In this document: piece after piece, positions 25,380 to 62,862 of the stretch
Layout: each line of letters opens with the position of its first letter
Numbering within the stretch: the first letter of the stretch is position 1
From: Candidatus Aminicenantes bacterium
Lineage (GTDB): Bacteria > Acidobacteriota > Aminicenantia > Aminicenantales > JAFGBC01
NCBI GenBank assembly: GCA_963702005.1
Contig: OY969696.1
Coordinates: forward strand, 1,280,001-1,344,000
Direction: 5' to 3'
DNA length: 64,000 nt
Made by a program: the position numbers and the translations under genes
Notes under the pieces: model-generated
The model's database searches: none
Told to the model about the DNA's origin: nothing
The model's input: only the letters and a program-made list of their open reading frames with translations

Positions 25380-25927
25380 GGACGGCCATGAAATTCATCC
25401 TTTTTATCGCCTTGACCGGACTCGGGGCGGGCGTCCTTCAGGCCGCCGCTGAGAAATATCCGCCCTTGGCGACCGTCCCCCACGTCGACCTGGCCCGCTA
25501 CATGGGCACGTGGTACGAGATCGCCGCCTTTCCCCAGCGCTTCGAGAAGGGTTGCCATTGCGCGACGGCCGAATATCAGATGATGGACAAGGGGTACGTC
25601 CGCGTCATCAACAGCTGCCGGAAGGGCAGCCCCCAGGGGAAAATCAAAGTCGCCAGGGGGAAGGCCTTCATCGTAAAAGGGAGCGGGAACGCCAAGCTCA
25701 GGGTCCAGTTTTTTTGGCCCTTCCGCGGCGACTATTGGATCATCGACCTGGCCGAGGATTATAGTTACGCCGTGGTCGGGGAGCGCAGCCGAGAGTACCT
25801 CTGGATCCTTGCCAGAACGCCGCGCATGGATGAAGCCCTCTACCAGGAGATTTTAGCCCGCGCTAAGAATAAAGGATTCGATATCAGCCGGCTCCTGCGG
25901 ACCGATCAGACCTGCCAGACTCCGTAA
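25376..25927 (+). CDS. blc: Bacterial lipocalin
   Basis: VDLARYMGTWYEIA, AKLRVQFFWPFRGDYWII, YLWILARTP. Confidence 0.9.
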   Translation: MRTAMKFILFIALTGLGAGVLQAAAEKYPPLATVPHVDLARYMGTWYEIAAFPQRFEKGCHCATAEYQMMDKGYVRVINSCRKGSPQGKIKVARGKAFIVKGSGNAKLRVQFFWPFRGDYWIIDLAEDYSYAVVGERSREYLWILARTPRMDEALYQEILARAKNKGFDISRLLRTDQTCQTP

Positions 25928-35821: not shown

Positions 35822-35919
35822 GATTTCTCGAAGCGGGCAGGAAGAGGCGACCGCAAGGCCCGAGCGGCTGGGTCTGAGCCGCGGAAAAAGGATGATTGAC
35901 AGCGACCGAAACGGAGCGA

Positions 35920-36615: not shown

Positions 36616-36637
36616 CGGGTAGAGATCCCTGATTTCC

Positions 36638-38725: not shown

Positions 38726-39101
38726 TGATGACCCCGATTTTTTGGAGATGCACAAGGCCGTCCTGCAGAACCACGGCTACGTCGTGTCCACCGCGATGAG
38801 CGGGCAGGAGGGGCTTGAGCGCGTCCGGGCCGAGATGCCGGACCTCATCATCCTCGACCTCATGATGGAGAAGCATGACGCCGGCTTCTCCTTCAGCAAG
38901 ACGATAAAGACCGACCCCCTGTTCAAGAGAATCCCCATCCTCATGGTGACCTCCGTGGCCGAAGCCACCGGCTACCGCTTCTCATTGGAGGAGGACGGGT
39001 ACTGGATGAAGACCGACGATTTCCTGGATAAGCCCGTCATGCCCGAGGTTCTCCTCGACCGGGTCGGAAAACTCCTGCAAAAGAAAGAAGAAGAATCGTG
39101 A
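38694..39101 (+). CDS. Single-domain response regulator
   Basis: ILLVDDD, IILDLMM, ILMVTS, FLDKPV. Confidence 0.92.
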   Translation: MKARGKILLVDDDPDFLEMHKAVLQNHGYVVSTAMSGQEGLERVRAEMPDLIILDLMMEKHDAGFSFSKTIKTDPLFKRIPILMVTSVAEATGYRFSLEEDGYWMKTDDFLDKPVMPEVLLDRVGKLLQKKEEES

Positions 39102-40598: not shown

Positions 40599-42863
40599 AT
40601 GACCCCGAGTGCGGAACATGAGTTGAACGAGATCCTCAGAAAGGAACTCCTGGCACCGGGCATCGTGCTTTTCGAGATCTCCGCGCCCCTCATCGCCCGG
40701 ACGGTCCAGGCCGGCCAGTTCGTCGTCGTTCGGGCCGACGATTACGCGGAGCGGATCCCCTTGACGGTGGCCGACCGTCACCTCGAGAAGGAGACGATCA
40801 CCCTGATCGTCCAGATCATCGGCCTCTCCACGCGAAAAATGGAGCAGCTCCAGGTCGGGGACGCGTTCCTCGACGTCGTCGGACCCCTGGGGAGGCCGAC
40901 GGAGGTCCGGAAGGCCGGGACCGTCGTGTGCATCGGGGGGGGCGTCGGCGTCGCGCCCGTCTACCCTATCACCAAGGCCTTCCGCGAGGCCGGGAACCGG
41001 ATCATCTCCATCATCGGCGCCCGGAACAAGGAGATGATCATCCTGGAAAAGGAGATGCGGGCCGTAAGCGACGAGCTTTTTGTGACTACGGACGACGGGA
41101 CGGTCGGACGCCACGGGTTCGTGACGGACGAGCTCCAGCGACTCGTCGCCGACCAGACGCCGATCGACCTCGTGGTCGCCGTCGGTCCCGGGGTCATGAT
41201 GAGGGCCGTATGCGATGTGACCAGGAAAATCGGGATCCCGACGGTCGTCAGCTTGAACTCCCTGATGGTGGACGGGACCGGTATGTGCGGCAGCTGCCGG
41301 ATCACCGTGGGGGACCAGACGAAATTCGTCTGCGTCGACGGTCCCGAGTTCGACGGCCACCGGGTGGATTTCCAGGAGCTCCTCAAGCGGTCGGAAATGT
41401 ACAAGCGCGAGGAGCATCGGGCCATCTGGGACCATGAGTGCCGGCTTTTGGCCGCCGAGAAAATGCTGGAAAAGGCCAACAAGCGGGAGGCCATGCCGAA
41501 GCAGGACCCCAAGCTCCGGGTCCAGAACTTCAACGAGGTCGCCCTGGGCTACACCAAGGAGCGAACCCTGCGCGAAGCCTCGCGCTGCCTCGGCTGCAAG
41601 AAGTCGCCCTGTGTGGCCGGATGCCCCGTCGATATCGACATCCCGGGTTTCATCGCCCTCATCCGAAAGGGTGATTTCATCGGCGCCATCCACAAGATCA
41701 AGGAAAAGAACAGCCTGCCGGCCATCTGCGGACGCGTCTGTCCTCAGGAGGTCCAGTGCGAGACGGCCTGCGTGCTGTCCAAAAAAGGCCAGCCCATCGC
41801 CATCGGCCGGCTGGAACGATTCGTGGCCGACTACGAGTTCCAGCAAGGCGACGTCCGCGTGCCGAAGCGCCCGAGCCCGACCGGGAAAAAGGTCGCCGTC
41901 ATCGGGGCCGGCCCCGCGGGCCTGACGGCGGCCAGCGACCTCATCAAAATGGGGCACGGCGTCACGGTCTTCGAGGCCCTCCACAGGGCGGGGGGTGTCC
42001 TGGTCTATGGGATCCCCGAGTTCCGCCTCCCTAAATGGATCGTCCAACGCGAGAGCGAATATATCGCCAAGCTCGGAGCCGAGATCCGGGTCAGCCAGGT
42101 CGTCGGGAAATCCTTCACCGTCAACGACCTTTTCCGGAACGGGTATGACGCCGTCTTCATCGGAACCGGCGCCGGACTGCCGCACTTCATGAAGATCCCG
42201 GGCGAGAACCTCAACGGGGTTTACTCGGCCAACGAGTTCCTGACTCGGGTGAACCTTATGAAGGCCTATCTTTTTCCCGAATTCCATACGCCCGTCCACT
42301 ATGGTCGGAACATCGCCGTCGTGGGCGGGGGGAACGTGGCCATGGATTCCGCCCGGACCTCGCTCCGCCTGGGGGCGGAGAACGTCTATTTGATCTACCG
42401 CCGGGCGAGAGAGCAGATGCCGGCCCGCGAGGAAGAGATCGAGAATGCCTTTGAGGAGGGCGTCCAGCCGCGTTTGCTGACCGCTCCCGTTCGCATTCTG
42501 GGGAATGAGCGGGGCTGGGTGAAGGGGATCGAGTGCGTCCAGATGGAGCTGGGCGAGCCCGATGAATCGGGCCGCAGGCGGCCTCTCCCCAAAAAAGGCT
42601 CGGAACACGTCATCGATGTCGATATGGTCATCATGGCCATCGGCCAGGGCCCCAATCCCTTGCTGACCTCGACGACACCCGACCTAAAGCTGACCAAGAC
42701 CGGGAATATTGTCGCCGACGAAGCCACGGGAAAGACCTCGAAAAAGGGCGTCTTTGCCGGCGGCGATATCGTCACGGGCGCGGCCACGGTCATCTTGGCC
42801 ATGGGGGCGGGCAAAAAAGCGGCCCAAGCGATCGACGCCTACCTGAAGGATGGACAATGGTGA
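40599..42863 (+). CDS. nfnAB: Fused NfnAB/SudBA-type electron-bifurcating NADH-dependent ferredoxin:NADP+ oxidoreductase
   Basis: N-half AGQFVVVR..ERIPLT..GGGVGVAP..MVDGTGMCGSCR..FVCVDGPEFD; C-half EASRCLGC..CVAGCPV..ICGRVCPQEVQCE..GAGPAGL..GVFAGGDIVTGAATVILAMGAG. Confidence 0.9.
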   Translation: MTPSAEHELNEILRKELLAPGIVLFEISAPLIARTVQAGQFVVVRADDYAERIPLTVADRHLEKETITLIVQIIGLSTRKMEQLQVGDAFLDVVGPLGRPTEVRKAGTVVCIGGGVGVAPVYPITKAFREAGNRIISIIGARNKEMIILEKEMRAVSDELFVTTDDGTVGRHGFVTDELQRLVADQTPIDLVVAVGPGVMMRAVCDVTRKIGIPTVVSLNSLMVDGTGMCGSCRITVGDQTKFVCVDGPEFDGHRVDFQELLKRSEMYKREEHRAIWDHECRLLAAEKMLEKANKREAMPKQDPKLRVQNFNEVALGYTKERTLREASRCLGCKKSPCVAGCPVDIDIPGFIALIRKGDFIGAIHKIKEKNSLPAICGRVCPQEVQCETACVLSKKGQPIAIGRLERFVADYEFQQGDVRVPKRPSPTGKKVAVIGAGPAGLTAASDLIKMGHGVTVFEALHRAGGVLVYGIPEFRLPKWIVQRESEYIAKLGAEIRVSQVVGKSFTVNDLFRNGYDAVFIGTGAGLPHFMKIPGENLNGVYSANEFLTRVNLMKAYLFPEFHTPVHYGRNIAVVGGGNVAMDSARTSLRLGAENVYLIYRRAREQMPAREEEIENAFEEGVQPRLLTAPVRILGNERGWVKGIECVQMELGEPDESGRRRPLPKKGSEHVIDVDMVIMAIGQGPNPLLTSTTPDLKLTKTGNIVADEATGKTSKKGVFAGGDIVTGAATVILAMGAGKKAAQAIDAYLKDGQW
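42742..42862 (+). repeat. Direct repeat copy 1 (3' end of nfnAB)
   Basis: 121 bp, 2 mismatches to 46066-46186. Confidence 0.93.
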
Positions 42864-43148
42864 CGCCCCCTACTCTGTCATCCCGCCGGATTTCCGCCGC
42901 TTTTGAGCGTCTCTGCGGCCTTTGAGTCCGCCTTCAGCTATTTCGAGCGCAACTTGAAATCTGACGACTCTACGACTTATCATCCCTCTTCGCTCATCCA
43001 GTCAGCGCAGCAGAAAAGGAAATTATTATCCCTCCCGCCGCAAGACAGAAGCTGAAGTGTTCACCCGCCGGCTGGAAGAGGGGCAGGTCAAGGTCTTCGT
43101 AACGTCAAATCGCTGCTGGCTGGAAGAATGAGCTTTATTATTCCCTGT

Positions 43149-43928
43149 TTAGATCTTTTTTCCCGGCGGGTCAGGTTGAGGGCTCAACTGCGTAGGTGTA
43201 AAGATGATCGTAAAAGGAAGCCAGGTGGGTTCATCATCGATGACAACATAATCTGTAGGCGGTAACTTTGAAGCCGCTTCTTTGGTCAGTGTTTTAAGGC
43301 CCTGAAGAATCCCATGCGTGCCGATTATCTTTTCCGGGGGGTCTGGGTTGATGACCTCGATCGAGCCGACCGTGCCCTTGGCTCGGTCGAAGTTTATGAC
43401 TTCCGCGGTCTTTCTATCGGGAAGAAGGAACTTGAAATGGCCTTGGCCAAGCTTTTCTGCTTTCGTTCCTTTGGGCAGGATAAAAGACTGCTTTTCGGGC
43501 AGCTTGGCGCAGGGCTTCAACATAACGGCCAGGGTATTGTCGAGCTCGTTAGACTCCCTTATATAGTTTCCAAAATCCGTTTCAACTTTGACATTGATCG
43601 TTGAGGTTATGAAATAGGGTGCGAGATAGGTGGATGTCCCGCCCGGTTTCTCGATGCCTCCCCCTGTCGAAGAGGCGGCGCTTTTAAGGTCGATGGAATC
43701 GAATAATGTTGCGCTGTTGATCCACACATGCGATTTTCCAAACCATCCCTTCGCTAGAGGAGCATTGCTTGGATTGGCGATCGTAAAAGAGAGCTGGTTT
43801 TTAGGCGGCAGGCATTCTATTTTGGAGACAACGATATTTGGAAGAGGTTGAGCGAAGACGGAGCTCATGGTCACGGAGAACAAGGCGGCAGACGCCAAAG
43901 CCCACAATAAGATCTTATCTTTTTTCAT
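43149..43928 (-). CDS. Secreted protein with CARDB-like domain and C-terminal SPQPDPP motif
   Basis: Signal peptide; LPNIVV..FTIAN..ETDFGNYIRESNELDNT; ends QLSPQPDPPGKKI; more AT-rich than flanks. Confidence 0.7.
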   Translation of the reverse strand: MKKDKILLWALASAALFSVTMSSVFAQPLPNIVVSKIECLPPKNQLSFTIANPSNAPLAKGWFGKSHVWINSATLFDSIDLKSAASSTGGGIEKPGGTSTYLAPYFITSTINVKVETDFGNYIRESNELDNTLAVMLKPCAKLPEKQSFILPKGTKAEKLGQGHFKFLLPDRKTAEVINFDRAKGTVGSIEVINPDPPEKIIGTHGILQGLKTLTKEAASKLPPTDYVVIDDEPTWLPFTIIFTPTQLSPQPDPPGKKI

Positions 43929-44043
43929 TTTTCACTCTCCTGAGGCGATAAAACTTATAATAATACCGATTGTTAAATCGGATTTGTGCTCGGATTAAGT
44001 TTCCCCTTCTAAAGCCCTTATCTTCTCTCTGATGGGCATTATC

Positions 44044-51116: not shown

Positions 51117-52597
51117 TGAAGAACGTTCCGACCGTCAACCTGGGGATCGTCGCCGTCAGCCGCGACTGCTTCCCGATCGAGCTCTCCCGGACGCGCCGCA
51201 AGAGAGTCGCGGCCGAATGCCGGGCCAAGCGGGTCCCGGTCGTCGAGATCGAGACCATCGTCGAAAGCGAGAAGGACGTCCTGCGCGCCTTGGCCGAATT
51301 GCGGACGAAGAACGTCAATGCCCTGGTCGTCTTCCTGGGGAATTTCGGGCCGGAGGGGCCGGAGACCCTGCTCGCCCAGAAGTTCGACGGCCCGGTCATG
51401 TTCGCGGCCGCCGCCGAGGAGACCCAGAAGAACCTCATCCAGGGCCGCGGCGACGCGTTCTGCGGAATGCTCAGCGCCTCTTATAATATCGGACTCCGGA
51501 GGCTTCGGCCTTATATCCCCGAATACCCGGTCGGCACGGCGGCCAAGGTCGCCGCCATGATGGCCGCCTTCATCCCGATCGCCCGCGTCCGGCTCGGGCT
51601 CAAGGCGCTCAAGATCTTCGGGTTCGGCCCGCGGCCCCAGGATTTCCTGGCCTGCAACGCCCCCATCAAGCCGCTGTTCGACATCGGGGTGGAGGTCATG
51701 GAGAACAGCGAGCTCGACCTCTACGACATCTTCCTTAATGCCAAGGGACGGCCCGCCGTCAAATCGGTCGCCAAGGAGATGGCCAAGGAGCTGGGCGCCG
51801 GCAACACTTACCCGGGGATTCTCGAAAAGCTGGCCCAGTTCGAAGTCGCCCTGATCGAGTTCATGGAGGCCAATCTGGGAGCGTCGTCTTTCGGCGTCTT
51901 CGCCGACAAATGCTGGCCGTCCTTCGAGCGCTACTTCGGGTTCGTCCCCTGCTATGTCAACGCCCGGATGGCCGCCCGTGGCATCCCGGTCGCCTGCGAA
52001 GTCGACATCTACGGCGCCCTGAGCGAGTACATGGCGACCTGCGCCACGGAGCTGCCGGCGACGCTCCTCGACGTCAACAACACCGTCCCCGACGACATGG
52101 TCAAGGCCGCCAAGGCCAAGCTCAAAGGGTTCGGGCCGCGGGACCTGTTCATGGGCTTCCACTGCGGGAACACGGCCTCCGGCTGCCTGGTCGGGGGCGC
52201 CATCAAGTATCAGCTCATCATGAACCGGCTCATGGAGGGCGGAAAAAAGCCGGAGATCACCCTGGGGACGCTGGAGGGGAGAATTAAGCCCGGCCAAATC
52301 ACGATCTTCCGGCTCCAGTCGACGGCGGCGGGCGAGCTGCGCGCTTACGTCGCGGAGGGCGAGGTCCTGGACATCGACCCCAAGTCCTTCGGCGGCATCG
52401 GGGTCTTCGGAATCCGGGAAATGGGCCGCTTCTACCGCCACGTCCTCATCGAGAAGCGCTTCCCCCATCACACGGCCGTCGCCTTCGCCCACGCCGGGAA
52501 GGCGCTGTTCGCGGCCGTCCGCATGCTGGGCGTCGAGGACGTCGGCTTCAACCGGCCGGCCGGCTCATTCTACCCGGGCGAGAATCCGTTCGGGTGA
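51113..52597 (+). CDS. L-fucose/L-arabinose isomerase-family protein (non-canonical AraA substitute)
   Basis: ATGA overlap with araD; VSRDCFP, LGNFGPE, RGDAFCG, KCWP, ACEVDIYGA, FHCGN, FPHH. Confidence 0.8.
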   Translation: MMKNVPTVNLGIVAVSRDCFPIELSRTRRKRVAAECRAKRVPVVEIETIVESEKDVLRALAELRTKNVNALVVFLGNFGPEGPETLLAQKFDGPVMFAAAAEETQKNLIQGRGDAFCGMLSASYNIGLRRLRPYIPEYPVGTAAKVAAMMAAFIPIARVRLGLKALKIFGFGPRPQDFLACNAPIKPLFDIGVEVMENSELDLYDIFLNAKGRPAVKSVAKEMAKELGAGNTYPGILEKLAQFEVALIEFMEANLGASSFGVFADKCWPSFERYFGFVPCYVNARMAARGIPVACEVDIYGALSEYMATCATELPATLLDVNNTVPDDMVKAAKAKLKGFGPRDLFMGFHCGNTASGCLVGGAIKYQLIMNRLMEGGKKPEITLGTLEGRIKPGQITIFRLQSTAAGELRAYVAEGEVLDIDPKSFGGIGVFGIREMGRFYRHVLIEKRFPHHTAVAFAHAGKALFAAVRMLGVEDVGFNRPAGSFYPGENPFG

Positions 52598-52614
52598 TTT
52601 CCGGAGATACGCGG

Positions 52615-53748
52615 CTAGAGATCTTCCACCCAACCGTTAAGCCTGCCGATATTCCGGTTGAGGAGTTCACAGACGAATTCGTCGGGCTCAATGCAGACTT
52701 CGGGCGGCAGGACGCCGACCCCCTTGACTTTGCCTTCAACGAGCATTTGCGCCCCGACCGAAGCCGGGATGCCGGTCCCCTGGGCAATCCGTCCGGCCGA
52801 TGAATAAAATACGCGGCGGGTTTTGGTTCCCTTTTTTCCTTTGACCGCGACGCGCAAGGCTCCCTGCTTGGAGACACCCGTCAGGCCCAGACATCTTTTA
52901 TGGAAGAGAGCCGCCGCAAAATCCATCGGATCCGCCTCCCCTCCCTGGACCTGGAGCGGGCCTTCGCTGCGGCCGATGCGGCCGAGGGCTACGATCCACT
53001 CGTTGACGACGGCCGGATTAAAGGAGGCTTTGTCATCGACGACTTTGACCCCCGGGAACGACCGGGACAGGGTGATCGGCTCCGGGTGTCCGATATGGAA
53101 GACGTCAAGGGCCCCGACCGGATCGGGAAACTCGATCCGTTCTTTTCCGTCGACGAAGGATTGAACCTCGACGAGCCGGCCGTCCCGAAAGGTGAGCGCG
53201 GTGTGGGACAGCGAATACAATAGATGATAGGAGAGGGCCAGCCCTCCGGGGTCGGAGCCGCTCATGACCCAAGCCGTATGGATTTCCTCGACCTCGTCCA
53301 GTTGATTGGCGGCGGCCCGGACCAGGACATTATTCACGCCGGGGCTCGCGCCCAAACCCAAGATGATCGTAATCCCGGCCCGGCGGGCCGACTCATCCAG
53401 GTCGTACATCTCAAACGTGGTCAGGTAATCATCATTGATGTCGACCAGCGACACGCCGGCCTTGATGGCGGCGCGAGCGACCAGAGTTTCGTATTTATAA
53501 TTCGGGCCCGCGCAATTGACCACGACGTCGAAACCCTTCATGAGTCCGGCCAGATCGCCCGGCTGCCGCAGGTCCAGGGCTAAGGCCGAGGTCTTGGCCG
53601 CCCCCCCTTTCTGCCGCGCCAAGACGGTCTTGGCTTTAGCCAGGCTTCGCGTGGCGACGACAATTTCACCGAATTTTCCCGACCGATAAAGGTCCCGGAT
53701 CGCCTCTTCGCCCATTTCTCCCGAGCCTAAAACCAGCGCACGTTTCAT
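52615..53748 (-). CDS. Saccharopine dehydrogenase / lysine 6-dehydrogenase-like NAD(P)-dependent oxidoreductase
   Basis: LVLGSGEMG Rossmann motif, DVVVNCAGP, VDINDD, GLGASPGVNN, IGHPEPITL, GVLPPE. Confidence 0.85.
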   Translation of the reverse strand: MKRALVLGSGEMGEEAIRDLYRSGKFGEIVVATRSLAKAKTVLARQKGGAAKTSALALDLRQPGDLAGLMKGFDVVVNCAGPNYKYETLVARAAIKAGVSLVDINDDYLTTFEMYDLDESARRAGITIILGLGASPGVNNVLVRAAANQLDEVEEIHTAWVMSGSDPGGLALSYHLLYSLSHTALTFRDGRLVEVQSFVDGKERIEFPDPVGALDVFHIGHPEPITLSRSFPGVKVVDDKASFNPAVVNEWIVALGRIGRSEGPLQVQGGEADPMDFAAALFHKRCLGLTGVSKQGALRVAVKGKKGTKTRRVFYSSAGRIAQGTGIPASVGAQMLVEGKVKGVGVLPPEVCIEPDEFVCELLNRNIGRLNGWVEDL

Positions 53749-53766
53749 GATGCCCTCCGATAAATC

Positions 53767-54981
53767 CTAAAGGGCTTCCGGGCCGGCTCTCTTCAAGCGC
53801 GGCTCGATCGGTCCGCCGTAAATCCTGTACTCATCGAGTTGACAGGAACGGATCAGCCGGCCCTTGTAGAGCATCAGATTGAGGCAGCCGTCACATTGGT
53901 TGATCCGCCCAGCGAAGACCTCATTCGGTTGTTGGAGATTGATGCATTGGACGTAAATCTTCTCGAAGAGCGTCCTGGGGTTGCGCAGCGACGCCTTGAG
54001 GAACCGCCCCAGCGCTTTCCGGACTTGTCCGTCGACGAGGGACGGCAAAAAAATTTTCATGCCCGGCGAGGTCTGTTCTTGGAAGGCGCAATAGCGTCCT
54101 CGTCTCAGGTGATGGAAGACCTGGACCAGTTCCGCCGTTTTCGGCCCCAGGGCGCCGTAGACCTGACGCGTCGTGCCGACCGGCAGCATGATGAGAAATT
54201 TAAGGCTTTCGGGGGAGGTCGTCCCGTTCAAGTACGCGCAGGGCCTGACCTCGGGGAATCGGTCCATAAGAAGGTCGGCCATGCGATCCGTCGTCACGCT
54301 CAAATCCTCCGGACGGCGGGTCGTACACTGAAGCCGACTGGTATCGATCGGCCGGCCGTTGACTTCATAGACCCAATCGTCCCGGAGGAGGAGCGATCGG
54401 AAGGCGATCAGAGAGACGTGCTGGACTTTATGGATATTCGCCCTGGACCAGGTGATGATGTCGGGCAGAGAGGCCAGCGTCGAGGGAAAGACGGTGATGT
54501 TATAGCCGCATTGAACTCCGCCGAGATCCCAGAGCATGTCCGCGTATCTTTGGCGGAGGGTGTTCATCTCGCCCTCCGTTTTTCCGACCCAGCCGGGCCG
54601 CTGCTGGCCCGCATCGACATGGATATAGAACAAGACCAGGCCGGCGCGCTTGAGCTCCGCGGCCAGGTCCCGGGTCAGCTTCTCGCCGTTGGTGAGGATC
54701 ATGGGCTTCATCCCGTGCCGGGCGATGAACCGGACGACTTCGACGAGGTCCGGATAGAGCAGCGGCTCTCCGCCGGCGATAGCGATCCGTTCGCAATGAA
54801 GCATCTCCCGGAGGGTGAGGATCTCCTGTTCGAGCTCGGCCAGCGGCCGGTGTCCTTCCAGGGAGTGGCGGAAGCAGCCCGGGCAGTGAAGGTCGCAGGC
54901 GTCGGTCACCTCAATCCAGGCGCCCGGGTTGTCGGTCCTGGACCAGGGAAAACGGTAGAGTGTTTCTCGGGACAGGCTCAT
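53767..54981 (-). CDS. Radical SAM protein, paralog C
   Basis: EVTDACDLHCPGCF (CxxxCxxC), AGGEPL, LTNG; C-terminal CDGCxNxMxYxGRLIRSC. Confidence 0.9.
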   Translation of the reverse strand: MSLSRETLYRFPWSRTDNPGAWIEVTDACDLHCPGCFRHSLEGHRPLAELEQEILTLREMLHCERIAIAGGEPLLYPDLVEVVRFIARHGMKPMILTNGEKLTRDLAAELKRAGLVLFYIHVDAGQQRPGWVGKTEGEMNTLRQRYADMLWDLGGVQCGYNITVFPSTLASLPDIITWSRANIHKVQHVSLIAFRSLLLRDDWVYEVNGRPIDTSRLQCTTRRPEDLSVTTDRMADLLMDRFPEVRPCAYLNGTTSPESLKFLIMLPVGTTRQVYGALGPKTAELVQVFHHLRRGRYCAFQEQTSPGMKIFLPSLVDGQVRKALGRFLKASLRNPRTLFEKIYVQCINLQQPNEVFAGRINQCDGCLNLMLYKGRLIRSCQLDEYRIYGGPIEPRLKRAGPEAL

Positions 54982-56183
54982 GGGACCCCCTCCCTGCGTT
55001 TGACGGGACGAATCTCGCCGCCGAACATCCGATATTCATCCAGCCGGCAGGAATTGATCAGCCGTCCTTGATAGTGCATCATGTTGGCGCATCCGTCGCA
55101 AAGATTGACCAGGTCGCCCAGGATCTCGTTGGGCTGCTGGAGGTGGATGCTCTGAACGTAGATTCTATCGAACAGCCGGGCGGGATTCCTCAAGCACGCC
55201 TCAAGGAAGCTCCGGAAGGCCCGCCGGATCTCAGGGTCGAGCGCGGACAGGACAAATATTTTTTTCCCCGCGGGACGCCGGAGGAAGGCGCAATAGCGGT
55301 TCAGCCACAGATGGTAAAAAACCTGGACGATCTCCATGGTTTTAGGGCCCAGGACGCCGTAGATTTTCCGGGTTGAGCCGACAGGGGCGGCGATGAGGTA
55401 TTTCGTGGTCAGGGGATCGGCTGTTCCGCTCAGGTAGGCGCAAGCACGAAGACCGGGAATTTGCTTCTCCAGGACGGCGAACATGTCCTCCGTGGTCAGG
55501 CTGATCTCCTCGGGAGCGGGGACGTTTTCTTGATAGGGAGCCAGGTCCACTTTTTCTCCGTTGACCCGGTAGTCGAGATCCTCATTCCCGGGGATAAGTC
55601 GGAAAGCGATGAGTGAAATGTGCTGGACCTTGTGGATGTTCGACAGGCACCATTCCACGACCCCCGGAAGGTCATTCAAGCTGGACCGATAGACGGTCAG
55701 GTTATAGCCGCATTGCACCCCGCCCAATTCCCAGATTAAATCGGCATATCGCTGCCGGAGGGCGTTCATGCCCAGCTCGCTTCGGCCTTCCCAGCCCGGC
55801 CTGTTTTGTCCGCTGTCGACATGAAAGTGAAATTTGGCCAGCCCGGCCTTCTTGAGGTCCTTGGCCAGAGACCAGTCCAGTTTTTCGCCGTTGGTCAGGA
55901 TGACGGGTTTAATCCCGCGTCTGGCCATAAAATCCACGACCTCGACAATATGGGGATAGATGAGGGGTTCTCCGCCGGCGATGGCCATGCTGTCGCAGCG
56001 GGTCAGCCGATGGCCCTCCAGAATGTCCTTCCGCACGGCTTCGAGCGGCCGATGTCCCTCCAGCCGGTGGCGGTAGCATCCGCGGCACTCCAGGTCGCAT
56101 TCATCCGTGACTTCCACCCAAGCCCCGGGATTATCCGTCTTGGACCAGGGGAATCGATAAAGGCGGTTCCGATCAAGCGCCAT
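54978..56183 (-). CDS. Radical SAM protein, paralog B
   Basis: EVTDECDLECRGCY, AGGEPL, LTNG; CDGCANMMHYQGRLINSC; start MALDRN at 56183 aligns with paralogs. Confidence 0.9.
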   Translation of the reverse strand: MALDRNRLYRFPWSKTDNPGAWVEVTDECDLECRGCYRHRLEGHRPLEAVRKDILEGHRLTRCDSMAIAGGEPLIYPHIVEVVDFMARRGIKPVILTNGEKLDWSLAKDLKKAGLAKFHFHVDSGQNRPGWEGRSELGMNALRQRYADLIWELGGVQCGYNLTVYRSSLNDLPGVVEWCLSNIHKVQHISLIAFRLIPGNEDLDYRVNGEKVDLAPYQENVPAPEEISLTTEDMFAVLEKQIPGLRACAYLSGTADPLTTKYLIAAPVGSTRKIYGVLGPKTMEIVQVFYHLWLNRYCAFLRRPAGKKIFVLSALDPEIRRAFRSFLEACLRNPARLFDRIYVQSIHLQQPNEILGDLVNLCDGCANMMHYQGRLINSCRLDEYRMFGGEIRPVKRREGVP

Positions 56184-56841
56184 GGGCGGCTCCTCGCGGG
56201 ACGCGTTCCATCCGAATCCCGGTCCGGCTCCAGACGGCATAAAAGGCCAAGGCCAGAACCACGCCCGCGACGACGTCCCAGGCGACGTGCTCTTTTAAGG
56301 TCAGAGTCGACAGGGAGATCAGGACCGTCATGAGAACCAGGCCGGATCGCACCGGTCGCGAAGGCCATACCGAAAAAGCCAGGCAGGTGGGGAAGACGGT
56401 CAAAGCGACATGCATGGAAGGAAGACAGGCAAAAGGATGAAGCCACAACATTCGATGGACTGTTTGTTGAAGGGCGATCATCCGTGTCGGGCAAGGCGAG
56501 GCGGCGGCGAAGACATACTCGAGCCCCGCACCGGTCAAGATCATGAGGACATAGGCGGCAACAGCTCTATGGAACATTCGATGGGGGAGTTTCCAGACGA
56601 TCAGGAAGGCTCCGAGAAGGACGTAGAGATCGCCCAGATAATAAAAGCAGGCCGTCCATCCCCAGTAGGGAATCCAGGCGTCAATGAAGATGCTGTAATC
56701 ATGGATGGTCAGCGGGGCCCATTGGGTCAAAGCATTGACTAAACGGTAGCAGGCGATGTGGAAAAGAGCGACGCCCAGGATCATCACCAGATGTCCCAGC
56801 CGATGGCCGTTCGAAAGCTCGGGAGCTCTTGCCGTATTCAT
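56173..56841 (-). CDS. PAP2-superfamily membrane phosphatase/phosphotransferase (IPC-synthase/Aur1-like)
   Basis: ~6 TM; IDAWIP; FACLPSMHVA; STLTLKEHVAWDVVAG. Confidence 0.82.
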   Translation of the reverse strand: MNTARAPELSNGHRLGHLVMILGVALFHIACYRLVNALTQWAPLTIHDYSIFIDAWIPYWGWTACFYYLGDLYVLLGAFLIVWKLPHRMFHRAVAAYVLMILTGAGLEYVFAAASPCPTRMIALQQTVHRMLWLHPFACLPSMHVALTVFPTCLAFSVWPSRPVRSGLVLMTVLISLSTLTLKEHVAWDVVAGVVLALAFYAVWSRTGIRMERVPRGAAHGA

Positions 56842-58049
56842 TCCGCTTGTTTTCTTGGGCTTGGGACCGTGGTGATAAGATCGCCGAAAATCCGGTATTC
56901 ATCAAGCTGACAGGGATTGATTAATTTGTCTTGATAGATCATCGGATTCACGCAGCAATCACAAAGATTTTTTTTCCCCTCAATCATCTCGTTGGGCTGC
57001 TGAAAGTTAATACACTGAACATAAATCTTTTCGAATATTCTAATGGGATTCCTAACTACGGCTTTTAAATAGTTGACAAACGTTTTTCTGACTTCTTTGT
57101 CAACAAGGGAAAGAATAAACAATTTCTTCCCGACGACCGGATTCTTAAAAAAAGAACAGTATCTCCCTTTGAATAAATGATAAAAAACTTGAACAAGCTC
57201 GACTGTTTGTCTTCCCAAAAAACCGTATGGTCCTCTTTTGCTCCCCGCAGTGAGAATAACTAAATGTTTGTTCGTTTTGTAGGCCGTTGTCCCATTTATG
57301 TAGGCACAGGGCCGGAAGTCAGAATAGCGATTTTGGAGCATTCCAAACATTTCTTCGGTTGAAATATTAATTTCTTCAAGATTCGAATAGCCGATCGGGA
57401 CCGCGCTTGTGTCGATTTTCCGGCCATTGACCACATAGTCCATTCCCTCGACGATGGGCAGGCCCCGAAAGGCGATAAAAGTAATATGCTGGACTTTATG
57501 GATATTGGCCCGGCACCATTCCACGATCTCGGGAATATATTTTAGGTTTGAGCGAAATACCGTGACGTTATACCCGCATTGAATCCCGCCGACTTCCCAG
57601 AGCAAATCGGCATAATGTTGCCTGGCTTCGTTCAATTCGACTTCATTTTTCCCGGTCAAACCCGGCCTGTTCTGAGCGCTGTCGATATGAAAGTGGATCT
57701 TGCTCAAGCCCGCTTTTTTTAGCGCCAAAGCATAATCCCTGGTTAATTTTTCTCCATTGGTGAAAAGCACGGATTTCATTTTATGCTCGGTAATAAATTT
57801 CACGACTTCTACAAGATGAGGATAAATGAGCGGTTCTCCGCCCGCTATGCACAGACAATCGCAGTTGGTTAATTCCTGCACCGCAACAATATCATTTTTA
57901 ACCTCTTCCAAGGACCTATGCCCCTCCAGCCTGTGTCTGTAACAATCGGGACAGGACAAGTCACAATCGTCCGTTACTTCCACCCATCCGCCCTGATTAT
58001 CCGTCCTTGACCAAGGGAGCTTATAAAAATTTCTCCTCATTTCGTTCAT
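56838..58049 (-). CDS. Radical SAM protein, paralog A
   Basis: EVTDDCDLSCPDCY, AGGEPL, FTNG; CDCCVNPMIYQDKLINPC. Confidence 0.9.
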   Translation of the reverse strand: MNEMRRNFYKLPWSRTDNQGGWVEVTDDCDLSCPDCYRHRLEGHRSLEEVKNDIVAVQELTNCDCLCIAGGEPLIYPHLVEVVKFITEHKMKSVLFTNGEKLTRDYALALKKAGLSKIHFHIDSAQNRPGLTGKNEVELNEARQHYADLLWEVGGIQCGYNVTVFRSNLKYIPEIVEWCRANIHKVQHITFIAFRGLPIVEGMDYVVNGRKIDTSAVPIGYSNLEEINISTEEMFGMLQNRYSDFRPCAYINGTTAYKTNKHLVILTAGSKRGPYGFLGRQTVELVQVFYHLFKGRYCSFFKNPVVGKKLFILSLVDKEVRKTFVNYLKAVVRNPIRIFEKIYVQCINFQQPNEMIEGKKNLCDCCVNPMIYQDKLINPCQLDEYRIFGDLITTVPSPRKQAE

Positions 58050-58052
58050 GGC

Positions 58053-59690
58053 TTATTCCTCCTTCGGCAGCATTGAACGATTAATAAAGTCCTCCCCGCA
58101 TCTCTCAATATCATTAATCTTTTTGTTTGTCCTATCGATGATGAATCTGGACTGTTTTTGAAAATGCACGAAGAGCACAGCCAGCGTTACGGCCGATTCA
58201 ATCGCCCTTGGATTTCTGAAAAGAACGGTCAACAGCATTTTCCAATAGTACCAGCCTGTTGTTCTATCGAATCCCGCTTTAATGCAGACTTTCGAGAATA
58301 TGTACGCGTTCTTCAGAGTTCCACTAATGCCGGGTCTATATTTGTTGGCGGGGTTTAAATTAAGGCTCGTAGAGGTCACTCTTTGATAATAATGACCCGG
58401 ATCATAGACATATTTTAGGATACGGACAAAGTCTCTTAAAATATCCACCCTGGGCCTGGCGGTCATAAAATTTAGGCCGCTGGACATTTGATCAATTTTA
58501 ATCTCATGATCCGCCGTCGGCGTGCTCTCCTCAAACAACCTTCCTTCTTTTTTTAGGCGTTTAGCCAATTGTGTATTCGGCAATGCGTAGAGTGTTCCTA
58601 TCATGGCCATGCATATCCCCGAATCCTGAATACAGTTAATGATCTTTTCAGCGGTTTGATCGTTTTCATTATCAAAACCGATAATAAAACCCGAATCCAC
58701 TATCATCCCGAACGAATAAATCTTCTTAATAGTTTTGACAATCGGCCTCTGGAGATTTTGTTCCTTGTGGGCCAGCTTCAATACCTCGTCTTCCGGACTT
58801 TCAATGCCGATATTGATAAACCTAAAATCGACATCCTTCATCATCCGCAGAAGATCCTCATCATCCGCGATATTGAAGGGAGCCTCGGTCCCGAAATAGA
58901 AAGGATAATGGTTCGTTTCGGACCATTCTCCGAGCGCGGTCAAAAGCTCTTTGGCGCTCCTTTTATTTCCGATAAAATTATCATCGACAAAAAACACATG
59001 ACCCCGATACCCCAATTCATAAAGGCATTGAATTTCTTCAATGATTTGACCGGCCGTTTTTGTCCGCGCTTTCCTGCCGAATAATTCAATGATATCGCAG
59101 AACTCGCAATGAAAGGGACAACCGCGGGAAAATTGGATTCCGGCCATGAGATAATCTTTGGGCCTGACCAAGTCAAACCTGGGAACCACGGCTTGAGTCA
59201 TATCCGTCATTTCAGTTGATTTGTATTCGCCGCTCCCGCAACCTTTATCCAGGTCTTTTATGAAATTTGGAATGGCAATCTCTCCTTCTCCACATAAAAG
59301 GTAATCCGCCGATTGATACAAGCTGGGCTGAGATGTGGGATCCGGACCGCCAACGACAACCGGACAACCAAAGCGATGGCTTTTATCAATTATCGAAAAT
59401 GTGCCCTCCTGCTGACACAGCATGCCTCCCGTACAAACAATATCCGCCCATTCCAAGTGTTCATCCCGGAGAGGCTTAACATTTTCATCAACCAACTTAA
59501 ATTTCCATTGCTGGGGCAGCAACGCCGCCACCGTCATTAGACCCAACGGCGTGACGGGATATTTTGCTCCCGCTATTTTACATACATCGATATAGTTTAA
59601 ATAACTGAATTCCGAAAATTTCGATTGGACGATGAGACAGTTGGTCCCTTTTTCCAATAAACCATTGACAGGCTTTCCTGAACGGTTCAT
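58053..59690 (-). CDS. B12-binding radical SAM protein (class B methyltransferase-like, DUF4070-like C-terminus)
   Basis: PLGLMTVAALLP, VVGGPDPT, GEGE, FSRGCPFHCEFCDII, VDDNFIG, IGIESP, GFIIGFD, ALPNTQL. Confidence 0.9.
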   Translation of the reverse strand: MNRSGKPVNGLLEKGTNCLIVQSKFSEFSYLNYIDVCKIAGAKYPVTPLGLMTVAALLPQQWKFKLVDENVKPLRDEHLEWADIVCTGGMLCQQEGTFSIIDKSHRFGCPVVVGGPDPTSQPSLYQSADYLLCGEGEIAIPNFIKDLDKGCGSGEYKSTEMTDMTQAVVPRFDLVRPKDYLMAGIQFSRGCPFHCEFCDIIELFGRKARTKTAGQIIEEIQCLYELGYRGHVFFVDDNFIGNKRSAKELLTALGEWSETNHYPFYFGTEAPFNIADDEDLLRMMKDVDFRFINIGIESPEDEVLKLAHKEQNLQRPIVKTIKKIYSFGMIVDSGFIIGFDNENDQTAEKIINCIQDSGICMAMIGTLYALPNTQLAKRLKKEGRLFEESTPTADHEIKIDQMSSGLNFMTARPRVDILRDFVRILKYVYDPGHYYQRVTSTSLNLNPANKYRPGISGTLKNAYIFSKVCIKAGFDRTTGWYYWKMLLTVLFRNPRAIESAVTLAVLFVHFQKQSRFIIDRTNKKINDIERCGEDFINRSMLPKEE

Positions 59691-59789
59691 TTTCTTTGAG
59701 ATCAGTAAGATTGATTAAAATTTCGTTTTCTGCTGAGACGGCCCCGGGCGGCCTTTCGCAGCGGAAATCCCTTCTCCCCGTTCAGGAAA

Positions 59790-59818
59790 AGCATAACGCG
59801 AAGCTCACAACATGTCAA
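59790..59818 (-). promoter_or_regulatory. Sigma70-type promoter of the radical SAM operon
   Basis: TTGACA-N17-TATGCT on minus strand ~100 bp upstream of 59690. Confidence 0.65.
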
Positions 59819-59846
59819 GGGAAGCTGGAGCGAGCGGCTCGGTCGC

Positions 59847-60236
59847 CTAGGGGATCAAGCTTTTAATCTTCTTGAGAAAGGCGGCGGGATCGACCGGCTT
59901 TTCGATAACGGCGTCGGCCTGCGAATCCCTGACGATATGCTTGAGCGCGACTTTTTTGTAGACGGCCGTGATCAGAATGACCTTGGTCCGGGCGAGGTCG
60001 GGATCGCTCTTGATCCGGGCACAGAGGCCGAGGCCGTCCATCCGGGGCAGGACGACGTCGCTGATGACGAGGTCCGGCTTCTCTTTGCGGACGAGCTCCA
60101 GCCCGGCCTGCCCGTCCTTGGCCGAGCGGACCAGGAAGTCGTTTTGGGACAGGATGCCCTCGAGAAGACGGAGCGTCACCGGGTCGTCCTCGATGACGAC
60201 GATTTTTCTGAACATCGCTTGGTACTTTATATTCAT
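59847..60236 (-). CDS. Single-domain response regulator
   Basis: IVVIEDD, LVISDVVLP, ILITA, IEKPV; start could be 60215. Confidence 0.88.
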   Translation of the reverse strand: MNIKYQAMFRKIVVIEDDPVTLRLLEGILSQNDFLVRSAKDGQAGLELVRKEKPDLVISDVVLPRMDGLGLCARIKSDPDLARTKVILITAVYKKVALKHIVRDSQADAVIEKPVDPAAFLKKIKSLIP

Positions 60237-60360
60237 GTTTCTAAGTCCCCGCCTAATTTAGTACGACTATATAGCTCGAGCCGGATTCTTGTCAAGCCTT
60301 CTCCGTCTTGTGCCCCGGCGCGGTTTCCGCTATCCTAAAGTCGAGGAAAGGGAGGCCGCT

Positions 60361-62862
60361 ATGAAGGGTGAAGGAACGATGAATACGTGCGTCTTCAAGC
60401 GCTCGCTCGCGCTCGGTTTGCTCTCGGCGATCCTGGCGGTTTCGTCTTTTGCGGCGTCGGTCCAGACGGCGCGCTCGGCCGCGCCGGATTGGTCTCAGAC
60501 AAAAATCTGGTACCAGCATCCGGCCGCTCGCTGGGAGGAAGCGTTCCCGGTCGGCAACGGGCGGCTGGGCGCCATGGTCTTTGGAAGGACCGACGAGGAG
60601 CGGATCGCCCTCAACGAGGAGACCTACTGGTCGGGCGGGCCCTATTCCCAGACGGTCCCCGGCGCGTCCCAAAGCCTGGCCGAGATCCGGCGGCTCATCT
60701 TCGCCGGCGAGTATATCAAAGCCCACCGGCTGTTCGGCCGGACCATGATGGGCTATCCCGTCGAGCAGCAGAAGTACCAGGCCTTGGGAGATCTCCTTTT
60801 GCGTTTCCCGTCCCCGGAAAGCGGAGAGGCCGTCTATTACCGTCACGAGTTGGACCTTGACCGAGCCCTGGTCGTCACCTCCTACTCTCAGGGCGGCGTC
60901 CGGTTCGTAAGGGAGGTTTTCGCGTCGCCCCTGGACCAGGTCATCGTCGTCCGGCTTACGGCCGACAAGCCCGGTCAGGTCACCTTCCGGGCCGAACTCC
61001 GCGGCGTCAGGAACGAAGCCCACTCCAACTACGCGACGGATTACTTCCGGATGGACGGCTTGGGCGGCGACGGCCTGGTCCTGCGCGGCCGCTCCGCGGA
61101 CTATCTCGGCGTCCCGGGCCGGGTCCGCTACGAAGCCCGCCTCCTGGCCGTCCCCGAGGGAGGGGTGATGGCTGTCGACGACCTCTCACTGGCCGTCAGC
61201 GGGGCCGACGCCGTCACCCTGTTCATAGCCGCGGCCACGAACTTCGTCAGCTTCAAGGACGTCAGCGCCGATCCGGCCGAGAGGGTGAGCACGGCCCTGG
61301 CCGCCGTCCGGAATAAATCCTACACGGACATCAAGGACGCCCACATCCGCGAGCACCAGAGGCTCTTCCGGCGCGTCTGGCTGGACCTGCCCCGGACGGA
61401 GGCGGCCGCCCGGCCCAGCGACGAGCGCATCGCGTCCTACGAAAACGAATCCGACCCGTCGCTGGCGGTCCTCGTTTTCCAGTTCGGCCGCTATCTTCTC
61501 ATCTCCTCGTCGCGGCCCGGAACCCAGCCGGCCAACCTTCAGGGGATCTGGAACGCGTCGATGAACCCGCCCTGGGACTCCAAGTACACGACGAACATCA
61601 ACACCGAGATGAATTACTGGCCGGCCGAAGTCGCCAACTTGAGCGAATGCGCCGAGCCCCTGTTCCGGATGATCAGCGAGCTCAGCGAGCAGGGAAGCGA
61701 GGTCGCCCGCGAGCACTACGGCGCCCGGGGCTGGGTCTTCCATCAAAACACGGATATTTGGCGGGCCGCGGCGCCCATGGACGGGCCGAACTGGGGGACG
61801 TTCTCGACCGGCGGGGCCTGGCTTTGCACTCACCTCTGGGAGCACTACAGGTTCAGCGGCGACCTCGACTTTCTGCGGGAGGTCTATCCCATTCTCAAAG
61901 GGAGCGCCGAGTTCTTCATGGACACCCTTGTCGACGACCCGAGGGGGAATTGGCTCGTTACCAACCCTTCGACCTCGCCCGAAAACTTTCCGCTCCGGCC
62001 GGGGAACGACCCTTTCTTCGACGAGGTCACGGCCGGCATGAGTCCGGGGACGACCCTCTGCGCCGGGTCCACCATCGACCTCCAGATCCTCAACGACCTG
62101 TTCGACGCCGTGACCGAAGCGGCCCGGGTCCTGGACATCGATTGGGACTTCAGAAACAAGGCGGTGGCCGTCTGGCAGAAGCTGGCCCCGATGCAGATCG
62201 GGAAGGACGGCGGCCTCCAGGAATGGCTCGAAGACTGGGGCCAACAGGAGAAGAGCCACCGGCACATCTCGAACCTTTACGGTCTTTTCCCCGGGAACCA
62301 CATCTCGCTCCGCGGGGCCCCCAAGCTGGCCGGCGCCTGCGGGGTCGTTCTCGACCAGCGCGGCCTCGAAGGGAACGGCTGGTCCTCGGCCTGGAAGATG
62401 GCCTGCTGGGCCCGTCTCCGCGATGCGGCCAAGGCCATGGCCAACTTCCGGCATGGGATCCGCAACTACACGCTCCCCAACCTGTTCTCGACCTGCTCCA
62501 AGGCCCTCCAGGTCGACGGGAGCCTGGGGCTTACGGCCGCCATCGCCGAAATGCTCCTCCAATCCCAAGAGAACGAGATCCTGATTCTTCCCGCCCTGCC
62601 CGCGTCCTGGGAACGTGGCGAGGTCCGGGGGCTTTGCGCCAGGGGCGGGTTCGAGGTCGATCTCGTTTGGGAAGGCGGCCGCTGGATTCAAGCCCAAGTC
62701 CGTTCCAAGGCCGGCAAGTTCTGCCGGATCCGGACGGATGTCCCCGTCGATGTGACTTTGGCGGGCCAGAAGGTCAAGCTCTTCCGGCCGGAGGCGACGG
62801 TAGTCGAGTTCCGGACCAAGGCCGGGGATGCCTATCTCGTCCGGCCCAAGATGGGCCGCTGA
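60361..62862 (+). CDS. GH95 alpha-L-fucosidase/alpha-L-galactosidase, secreted
   Basis: AFPVGNGRLGAM, FQFGRYLLISSSR, PANLQGIW, YTTNINTEMNYW, PSTSPEN, HRHIS, QVDG, EMLLQS. Confidence 0.93.
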   Translation: MKGEGTMNTCVFKRSLALGLLSAILAVSSFAASVQTARSAAPDWSQTKIWYQHPAARWEEAFPVGNGRLGAMVFGRTDEERIALNEETYWSGGPYSQTVPGASQSLAEIRRLIFAGEYIKAHRLFGRTMMGYPVEQQKYQALGDLLLRFPSPESGEAVYYRHELDLDRALVVTSYSQGGVRFVREVFASPLDQVIVVRLTADKPGQVTFRAELRGVRNEAHSNYATDYFRMDGLGGDGLVLRGRSADYLGVPGRVRYEARLLAVPEGGVMAVDDLSLAVSGADAVTLFIAAATNFVSFKDVSADPAERVSTALAAVRNKSYTDIKDAHIREHQRLFRRVWLDLPRTEAAARPSDERIASYENESDPSLAVLVFQFGRYLLISSSRPGTQPANLQGIWNASMNPPWDSKYTTNINTEMNYWPAEVANLSECAEPLFRMISELSEQGSEVAREHYGARGWVFHQNTDIWRAAAPMDGPNWGTFSTGGAWLCTHLWEHYRFSGDLDFLREVYPILKGSAEFFMDTLVDDPRGNWLVTNPSTSPENFPLRPGNDPFFDEVTAGMSPGTTLCAGSTIDLQILNDLFDAVTEAARVLDIDWDFRNKAVAVWQKLAPMQIGKDGGLQEWLEDWGQQEKSHRHISNLYGLFPGNHISLRGAPKLAGACGVVLDQRGLEGNGWSSAWKMACWARLRDAAKAMANFRHGIRNYTLPNLFSTCSKALQVDGSLGLTAAIAEMLLQSQENEILILPALPASWERGEVRGLCARGGFEVDLVWEGGRWIQAQVRSKAGKFCRIRTDVPVDVTLAGQKVKLFRPEATVVEFRTKAGDAYLVRPKMGR

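Follow-up and report, generated by a model that had tools for sequence, protein, structure and literature searches.

A candidate membrane-lipid operon with Tes-like radical SAM paralogues in a Candidatus Aminicenantes bacterium

Here we describe a six-gene operon located at 52615-59818 of a 64-kb stretch of Candidatus Aminicenantes DNA (contig OY969696.1; this whole stretch is called the window below). It encodes a B12-binding radical S-adenosylmethionine enzyme (B12-rSAM), three paralogous radical SAM proteins (rSAM-A, rSAM-B, and rSAM-C), a PAP2-type membrane enzyme, and a saccharopine-dehydrogenase-like (SDH-like) oxidoreductase. The six genes constitute a real operon, and its core belongs to an unstudied gene cluster that occurs across several phyla whose bacteria are mostly uncultured; chance alone would not explain the arrangement, since the PAP2 gene, the SDH-like gene, and two or three paralogous rSAM genes are also seen together outside this phylum. 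With a probability of roughly 60%, we consider the operon to be a horizontally acquired mosaic version of this conserved uncharacterised cluster that builds or remodels a membrane lipid, most likely acting on both the hydrocarbon tails and the head group.

The genes are tightly packed (Table 1). The successive junctions are a 3-nt gap, an ATGA overlap, an 11-nt overlap, another ATGA overlap, and an 18-nt gap, where the 11-nt overlap follows from a start of rSAM-B at 56183 set by alignment with its paralogues (the open reading frame, ORF, is itself open to 56240). The promoter site is among the two best of 12 promoter-like sites in the region 52300-60400, compared with 5.0 ± 2.4 such sites in shuffled sequences, and is separated from the B12-rSAM start codon at 59690 by an untranslated leader of about 100 nt. 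No Rfam family matched this leader in a search for riboswitches (a single long non-coding RNA match had an E-value of 0.86), its predicted fold is no better than that of shuffled sequences (z = -0.07), and its sole same-strand ORF, of 38 aa, begins at the TTG of the -35 hexamer. Thus the gene order, junctions, and promoter given in a preliminary description of this DNA are borne out by the ORF coordinates and the sequence. The domain assignments made there for all genes agree with Pfam, the B12-binding domain scoring slightly under its cut-off (31.8 versus 32.1 bits), and none of the six proteins reaches a curated NCBIfam cut-off. The same description reported no precursor peptide, protease, exporter, polyketide synthase, or nonribosomal peptide synthetase, and this holds as well: junctions from an 11-nt overlap to an 18-nt gap leave no room for a precursor-peptide gene within the operon, and the flanking genes (a response regulator, a GH95 glycosidase, and a fucose-isomerase-like gene) include none of the other functions.

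Table 1. Features of the operon region, from the promoter downstream (coordinates in the window)
Feature	Coordinates	Strand	Remarks
Sigma-70-like promoter site TTGACA-N17-TATGCT	59790..59818	-	10/12 consensus matches
B12-rSAM, DUF4070 C-terminal domain	58053..59690	-	545 aa
rSAM-A, Tes-like radical SAM paralogue, clade A	56838..58049	-	403 aa
PAP2_3-type integral membrane enzyme	56173..56841	-	222 aa
rSAM-B, Tes-like radical SAM paralogue, clade B	54978..56183	-	401 aa
rSAM-C, Tes-like radical SAM paralogue, clade C	53767..54981	-	404 aa
SDH-like: saccharopine-dehydrogenase / carboxynorspermidine-dehydrogenase-like NAD(P) oxidoreductase	52615..53748	-	377 aa

The three rSAM paralogues carry most of the argument. 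They score 52-64 bits with the Radical_SAM domain of Pfam and are 53-57% identical to each other; judged by sequence, they form a compact family that no curated model fits. A profile of 60 sequences run against 1.84 billion sequences in 50%-identity clusters returned 321 representatives at E <= 1e-30, and rSAM-B has homologues in 1053 clusters at E <= 0.001, with numerous metagenomic relatives 55-93% identical. Source names and Atlas clusters place the family in Aminicenantes, Gemmatimonadales, Ignavibacteriota, Myxococcota, Bacteroidota, and Parcubacteria, and also in Cyclobacteriaceae and Carboxylicivirga; the cultured species Carboxylicivirga marina has a distant member. The nearest relatives of rSAM-A are 80-89% identical to it, after which identity drops to 63%. 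No plasmid-borne relative of rSAM-B was found at E 1e-10 in a tblastn search of 72,556 plasmids. In a tree of 41 family members, the window copies fall into separate well-supported clades, of which A and C span phyla; the duplications are therefore old. Members of a further clade, D, are 37-40% identical to the window copies and usually adjoin an SDH-like gene.

Among solved structures, the closest relative of the paralogues, by both sequence and predicted fold, is the archaeal tetraether synthase Tes (GDGT-MAS). A profile of the three paralogues matches its structure 7tol best (E 5.5e-12), the next match being BlsE at 1.3e-5. The AlphaFold2 (AF2) model of rSAM-B (pLDDT 92.9) also finds 7tol as the best fold, over the full length (E 6.3e-12, TMq 0.57, 441 columns), whereas other rSAM folds, including BlsE, viperins, SuiB, and MoaA, match the core only (158-268 columns, TMq 0.28-0.43). 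Two cysteine triads, C29/C33/C36 and C362/C365/C379, are invariant in all 60 aligned family members. The second triad may correspond to the three cysteines of the C-terminal auxiliary cluster of Tes.

An ESMFold2 model of rSAM-B with rSAM-C gives a pseudo-symmetric dimer with a score of 0.82, compared with 0.00 for the best of three controls; 58 of 80 solved complexes and two of 110 mismatched pairs attained the mark used for such scores, counts that apply here only roughly because we used our own alignments. Contact agreement between runs is at least 91%, and the pLDDT of the partner at least 86. The interface is formed by the same residues in both chains, including the conserved N-terminal motif of the family at residues 10-17 (P12, W13, and D17 are invariant). 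The model thus supports dimerisation.

The second line of evidence comes from the genomic neighbourhood of the family. One scan of genome_contigs yielded 27 related loci, in which partner genes were counted by tblastn with proteins of the window and of the loci; 22 close loci contain family members more than 45% identical, and five distant loci contain members at 32-38% identity. The loci are labelled Aminicenantes, Gemmatimonadota, Bacteroidota, Ignavibacteriota, and 'Eubacteriales'. Two or more family rSAM genes are present in 16 of the 27 loci, and three or more in three. An SDH-like orthologue (49-75% identical) and a conserved GNAT-like protein of about 372 aa occur in ten loci each, PAP2 genes in nine (six of the window type, 39-62% identical and beside rSAM genes, and three longer PAP2_3 genes), and an alpha-oxoamine synthase similar to serine palmitoyltransferase (SPT-like) in four. 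A second, unrelated type of B12-rSAM, 24% identical to that of the window, is found in four loci (4/27), and the window's own type in none. Two loci each contain a CDP-alcohol phosphatidyltransferase with an inositol-phosphate-cytidylyltransferase-like partner, an AhbD-like rSAM, or a sulfotransferase; no PAP2 was found in the two loci with the CDP-alcohol enzyme. The GNAT assignment is weak in Pfam (E about 1e-3) and is backed by Atlas clusters scoring 0.98, where 65-73% of members carry PF00583.

At least one of the SDH-like, PAP2, GNAT, and SPT-like genes is present in 19 of the 22 close loci; the three misses are two contigs shorter than 3 kb and locus L015. The closest locus, L004 (rSAM-B 72%, rSAM-C 68%, and SDH 75% identical), has on one strand the order SPT-like, PAP2, rSAM, rSAM, rSAM, GNAT, SDH; its alpha-oxoamine synthase has serine palmitoyltransferase as the best model, at 493 bits and under the 640-bit cut-off. 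Conservation of the neighbourhood with PAP2, proposed as a check in the preliminary description, was observed in part, with PAP2 in nine of 27 loci and partners in most close ones. At the same time, the six genes are not one conserved unit, because the B12-rSAM of the window recurs in none of the loci and shares a foreign base composition with rSAM-A.

Two protein fusions link distant members of the family to domains of lipid enzymes. In P0421 (561 aa, in the cluster of P0350), an acyltransferase domain of the PlsC type (51.2 bits, cut-off 23) is fused with a family rSAM that is 26% identical to rSAM-B over the full length, and this protein is found on 38 contigs. P0278 (623 aa) is a single sequence that joins a PAP2_3 domain, 36% identical to the window PAP2, to a family rSAM.

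Several observations on the related loci may be useful in their own right. In two Bacteroidota loci (L008 556-4949 and L009 2116-5282), a single clade-A rSAM and a GNAT-like gene adjoin the sulfotransferase, followed in L008 by an APS kinase gene, which hints that their product is sulfated. One family rSAM of an Ignavibacteriota locus (L011 5436-6699) is split into ORFs of 239 and 180 aa, perhaps by a frameshift or an assembly error, or because the gene is a pseudogene. In two Gemmatimonadales loci (L015 11496-14257 and L020 16482-19415), histidine-kinase and response-regulator genes adjoin the cluster.

The family is not Tes, judging from its sequences. According to a recent review, Tes acts on unactivated carbons of lipid tails and has a four-domain build in which a rubredoxin-like and an N-terminal [4Fe-4S] domain precede the rSAM core, and its C-terminal cluster, held by three cysteines, is proposed to hold the substrate radical (PMC13459092). 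Among solved structures, Tes is the best match of the window proteins in sequence and fold, and their conserved C-terminal cysteines may correspond to those of its cluster. The window proteins are shorter (about 400 aa versus 493-526), and a locus has two to four of them, with PAP2, SDH-like, and GNAT genes as neighbours.

A further candidate for comparison is Mss (Tmari_0825 of T. maritima), described as an rSAM of anaerobic bacteria, remotely related to Tes, that couples fatty-acid tails; its report defines homologues by E <= 1e-50 and at least 30% identity to Mss of T. maritima or T. ethanolicus (PMC13159169). In the text covered here, neither the article on Mss, nor its preprint, nor the 2026 review gives a domain architecture for Mss. 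The window rSAMs might belong to the described Mss family and couple fatty-acid tails of glycerolipids into diabolic-acid-type lipids, so that only the gene context would be new. We regard this as unlikely. The remote relation of Mss to Tes speaks for it, as does the reported range of Mss homologues, which covers the FCB superphylum, deltaproteobacteria, candidate phyla, and DPANN archaea (PMC13159169) and overlaps the range of the window family; the PlsC fusion P0421, moreover, bears the source name 'archaeon'. However, no family member was found from Thermotogae or Clostridia, the groups with proven Mss, and the accessible part of the Mss account reports no PAP2, SDH-like, GNAT, or SPT-like partners (PMC13159169), the two families being compared by description only.

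Enzymes acting on glycerol dialkyl glycerol tetraethers (GDGT) offer another parallel. Gms, Gmm, and GrsA/GrsB carry out GDGT bridging, methylation, and ring formation. Work on Gms and Gmm describes a C-C-forming rSAM clustered with a B12-domain rSAM that decorates the same lipid (PMC11214058). Our operon also pairs putative C-C-forming rSAMs with a B12-domain rSAM, and the AhbD-like rSAMs in two of the 27 related loci are of the Gms type. In contrast to Gms, the window rSAMs score only 49.4, 30.8, and 33.2 bits with the AhbD model (cut-off 500) and have no N-terminal extension; the window B12-rSAM reaches no curated cut-off.

The PAP2 protein belongs to PAP2_3 (PF14378; 38.6 bits, cut-off 27). 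It contains PS(M/G)H and H-x3-D motifs, in which P141, S142, H144, H185, and D189 are invariant in nine of nine aligned homologues, and has no KxxxxxxRP motif; we take these residues to correspond to the PSGH-like, H-x3-D, and KxxxxxxRP motifs of PAP2 enzymes. The combination of His/His/Asp motifs without KxxxxxxRP is typical of phosphotransferases such as sphingomyelin and inositol-phosphoceramide (IPC) synthases. The window PAP2 scores 15.5 bits with the phosphoinositol dihydroceramide synthase model NF052609, the cut-off being 480.

The SDH-like protein scores above threshold with both domains of its family (Sacchrp_dh_NADP, PF03435, 68.6 versus 25.1 bits; Sacchrp_dh_C, PF16653, 40.8 versus 31) and has GSGEMG near its N-terminus. 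Its PDB matches, 4rl6 (1.2e-17), 4ina (3e-14), and 8deb (4e-13), are saccharopine and carboxyspermidine dehydrogenase structures. It reaches no equivalog cut-off, scoring 33.2 bits against 800 with the carboxynorspermidine synthase model NF043000, and amination by this enzyme is a guess.

The best matches of the SDH-like protein, carboxynorspermidine and saccharopine dehydrogenases, lend some weight to a different product, a soluble or signalling small molecule (an N-acylated amino-ketone, an amino-alcohol, or a polyamine-like compound) assembled by the alpha-oxoamine synthase, SDH-like, and GNAT enzymes and tailored by the rSAMs. Alpha-oxoamine synthases include autoinducer synthases, the L004 protein scoring 216.9 bits with the alpha-hydroxyketone autoinducer synthase model, and in the two Bacteroidota loci the rSAM and GNAT genes are bordered by sulfotransferase and APS kinase genes. 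We nevertheless find such a product improbable: a PAP2_3 membrane enzyme is present in nine of the 27 loci and CDP-alcohol phosphatidyltransferase genes in two, the family is fused to PlsC-type and PAP2 domains, and its best structural relative binds whole lipids.

Bacterial pathways to ceramide and IPC comprise Spt, an N-acyltransferase, a reductase, and a PAP2-type IPC synthase. The clusters of the relatives have a similar set: an SPT-like synthase and an acyltransferase of the GNAT type, together with an NAD(P) reductase and, for the head group, either a PAP2_3 or a CDP-alcohol enzyme. Because the core travels with the SPT-like and GNAT-type genes in relatives, the substrate of the candidate lipid-remodelling operon is plausibly a ceramide-like N-acyl amino-alcohol lipid, an ordinary glycerolipid being the alternative. 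The differences from the ceramide pathways are the scores of both key enzymes, given above, which lie under their cut-offs (SPT-like, 493 versus 640 bits; PAP2, 15.5 versus 480), and a reductase that is SDH-like rather than of the short-chain dehydrogenase/reductase (SDR) type. A study of Black Sea sphingolipids reports no rSAM in the part of its text accessible to us, where the words 'radical', 'operon', and 'PAP2' are absent (PMC11334938).

The first gene of the operon appears, from its sequence and predicted fold, to encode a class B (B12-binding) radical SAM enzyme. It scores 103.9 bits with DUF4070, 66.1 bits with Radical_SAM, and 31.8 bits, a marginal value, with the B12-binding domain, and its CX3CX2C motif (C191/C195/C198) is invariant. 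The best folds for its AF2 model (pLDDT 87.2) are AprD4, OxsB, MgmA, CysS, TokK, and TsrM, the diol dehydratase AprD4 ranking first. Since these fold relatives have varied chemistry with a dehydratase at the top, methylation would be one option only, and a guess at that. The B12-rSAM stays far under the cut-offs for lipid B12-rSAMs: 50.5 versus 650 bits for HpnR, 59.6 versus 577.6 for HpnJ, and 78.9 versus 360 for the ladderane model TIGR04072. The protein is part of a very large and strongly conserved group: at least 7980 homologues, 62-82% identical, occur in KSB1, Cloacimonetes, Spirochaetes, Ignavibacteriae, Atribacteria, and Bacteroidales. P0124, a relative of the B12-rSAM (71%), and P0244, a relative of rSAM-A (80%), each lie on a single contig of 30,641 bp, and P0156 and P0008 each lie on a contig of 6,836 bp; judged by these equal lengths only, the closest relatives of the two proteins may share contigs, which does not imply adjacency.

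The second B12-rSAM type of the related loci is located at L002 7677-7934, L011 9024-10604, L016 5314-6918, and L020 11321-12877, its copies being 63-72% identical to each other. It adjoins a family rSAM of clade D in L011, L016, and L020 and an E-clade copy in L002, with an SDH-like gene also present. B12-rSAMs seem to have joined this type of cluster at least twice. The window itself encodes another B12-rSAM with DUF4070 (25981-27519, minus strand, 512 aa), 34% identical to that of the operon and of host-like base composition (GC content at third codon positions, GC3, 0.82); it adjoins genes for a Blc-like lipocalin (25376-25927) and a DUF6786 protein (24153-25379).

The base composition of the operon is stratified. 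GC3 is 0.853 ± 0.027 in 14 surrounding host genes, 0.67-0.78 in the SDH-like, rSAM-C, rSAM-B, and PAP2 genes, and only 0.50 in rSAM-A and 0.49 in the B12-rSAM gene (overall GC 0.43 and 0.44, respectively), with the step exactly at the border between rSAM-A and PAP2. The operon is flanked by a fucose-isomerase-like gene paired with an FGGY-kinase gene on one side and by the response regulator and the GH95 glycosidase on the other. Because of the two GC3 levels unlike the host and this sugar-gene setting, the operon looks like an acquired island in two layers, a mosaic, in which we consider the B12-rSAM and rSAM-A genes to be a late add-on in the Aminicenantes genome. A repeat search of 52300-60400 for mobile-element scars or flanking repeats gave only the paralogue repeats and short chance matches.

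Such composition, with both layers unlike the host, could also mark an incomplete, recently assembled patchwork that no longer has, or does not yet have, a defined product, and the lack of GNAT and SPT-like genes in the window and a gene order unlike that of L004 fit this reading. We hold it to be very unlikely, given that none of the six reading frames is broken, that they follow a good promoter match in tight coupling, that the catalytic Cys, His, and Asp residues have been conserved, and that the absent genes could sit elsewhere on the 4.3-Mb contig. That the rSAMs are peptide or protein maturases of the SPASM type or of the kind that modifies ribosomally synthesized peptides (RiPPs) is hardly credible, as the weak matches to the SPASM/twitch maturases PqqE, SuiB, and SkfB cover only the rSAM core (192-236 columns and TMq 0.32-0.41, versus 441 columns for Tes), there is no place for a precursor-peptide gene within the operon or next to it, the vicinity contains neither a protease nor an exporter, and no peptidase or peptide-exporter family is tied to the cluster among the neighbours scanned in related loci. 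The preliminary description had named clustering with cofactor or RiPP rSAMs as evidence that would speak against a lipid pathway; the paralogues lie nearest to Tes instead, with other rSAMs matching the core alone.

We propose the following scheme for a lipid-remodelling operon. By analogy to Tes, the rSAM paralogues of about 400 aa would activate unreactive sp3 carbons in the alkyl chains of a lipid by means of 5'-deoxyadenosyl radicals and a putative C-terminal three-Cys auxiliary Fe-S cluster, and would then make C-C bonds, that is, tail-to-tail links, bridges, or rings. Separate paralogues may serve separate positions or steps, probably as dimers. The PAP2_3 protein would act on the lipid at the membrane, either transferring a phospho-head group or removing it, and the SDH-like enzyme would use NAD(P)H to reduce a keto group or to carry out a reductive amination in the backbone or head group of the lipid. 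The B12-rSAM would be a later add-on decorating the chain, possibly by methylation. The membrane-lipid builder suggested in the preliminary description thus gains from Tes as the nearest solved relative, from the lipid-type neighbours, and from the PlsC and PAP2 fusions, while the methylation and amination it included stay guesses, with AprD4 as the top fold for the one and no equivalog for the other.

A number of observations weigh against this scheme. We infer the lipid product from evidence that is wholly computational. The likeness to Tes is remote (16% identity, TMq 0.57, root-mean-square deviation 9.4 Å), and the cut-off of 450 bits of the Tes model NF045702 is approached by none of the paralogues (52.0 bits for rSAM-A, 37.1 for rSAM-B, and 50.7 for rSAM-C). 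They lack the approximately 110 residues before the rSAM core of Tes; their CX3CX2C motif already starts at residue 29, which leaves too little sequence for a rubredoxin-like and an N-terminal cluster domain; in the PDB alignment to 7tol, query residues 21-191 are paired with chain residues 110-287. The dimer model fits a heterodimer as well as an interface of homodimers shared by paralogues that are 57% identical. The SDH-like protein resembles enzymes of polyamine and amino-acid metabolism and would be equally apt for a soluble product. In the window, the neighbours of the operon are sugar-catabolism rather than lipid genes, and no GNAT or SPT-like homologue was found within its 64 kb. Among the related loci, the B12-rSAM type of the window is absent from all 27, L015 has full flanks and no partner gene at all, and none of the five distant loci (Bdellovibrionota, Myxococcota, and Bathyarchaeia) has a partner gene. 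Finally, the PAP2 fusion P0278 is a singleton and a possible gene-calling artefact.

Some other features of the window deserve a record. The response-regulator gene directly upstream of the operon (59847-60236, minus strand) is stand-alone, with host-like GC3 (0.83) and its own TTGACA-18-TATAGT site. Two further low-GC patches, 42001-44000 (0.545) and 16001-18000 (0.58), stand out from the surrounding value of about 0.64 and may be other acquired segments; the former contains an ORF (43149-43928) with GC3 of 0.57 and no Pfam match. A histidine kinase encoded at 36638-38725 has an N-terminal domain resembling the large subunit of [FeFe]-hydrogenases together with ferredoxin-type Fe-S motifs, is flanked by three response-regulator genes (region 35896-40576), and resembles a sensor kinase of the hydrogenase type.

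Radical SAM enzymes that join inert lipid tails or modify them, such as Tes, Mss, Gms, Grs, and Gmm, have been discovered only since 2019, and they underpin the reading of sedimentary lipid biomarkers. Targeted literature searches on the gene combination found no published description of our gene set, in agreement with the preliminary description, which had not recognised it as a known pathway; for DUF4070, the literature listed comprises hopanoid work, including work on HpnP, and a survey of DUFs. The accessible part of a 2026 review of lipid-modifying rSAM enzymes has no such set either, with sections only for Tes, Mss, Gms, GrsA/B, Gmm, Cds, HpnH, HpnJ, HpnP/R, Jaw5, and the ladderane enzymes (PMC13459092). 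Here we add a further rSAM family, distinct from Tes, whose members are spread over several phyla of uncultured anaerobes and are linked with PAP2, GNAT, SPT-like, and SDH-like genes.

A bolder and rather doubtful extension is that dimers of the Tes-like paralogues cross-link or cyclise the two alkyl chains in a phospholipid that is ceramide-like and made through SPT and GNAT, yielding macrocyclic or membrane-spanning lipids of the sphingolipid type in Aminicenantes, Gemmatimonadota, Ignavibacteriota, and Bacteroidota of anoxic sediments and peat, with unrelated B12-rSAMs of two types recruited independently as decorators. If true, these bacterial lipids would be a non-glycerol counterpart of the archaeal tetraethers, and orphan lipids in sediments might stem from them. 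Overall, the family points to an uncharacterised class of lipids and of lipid makers, and it offers concrete genes for expression.

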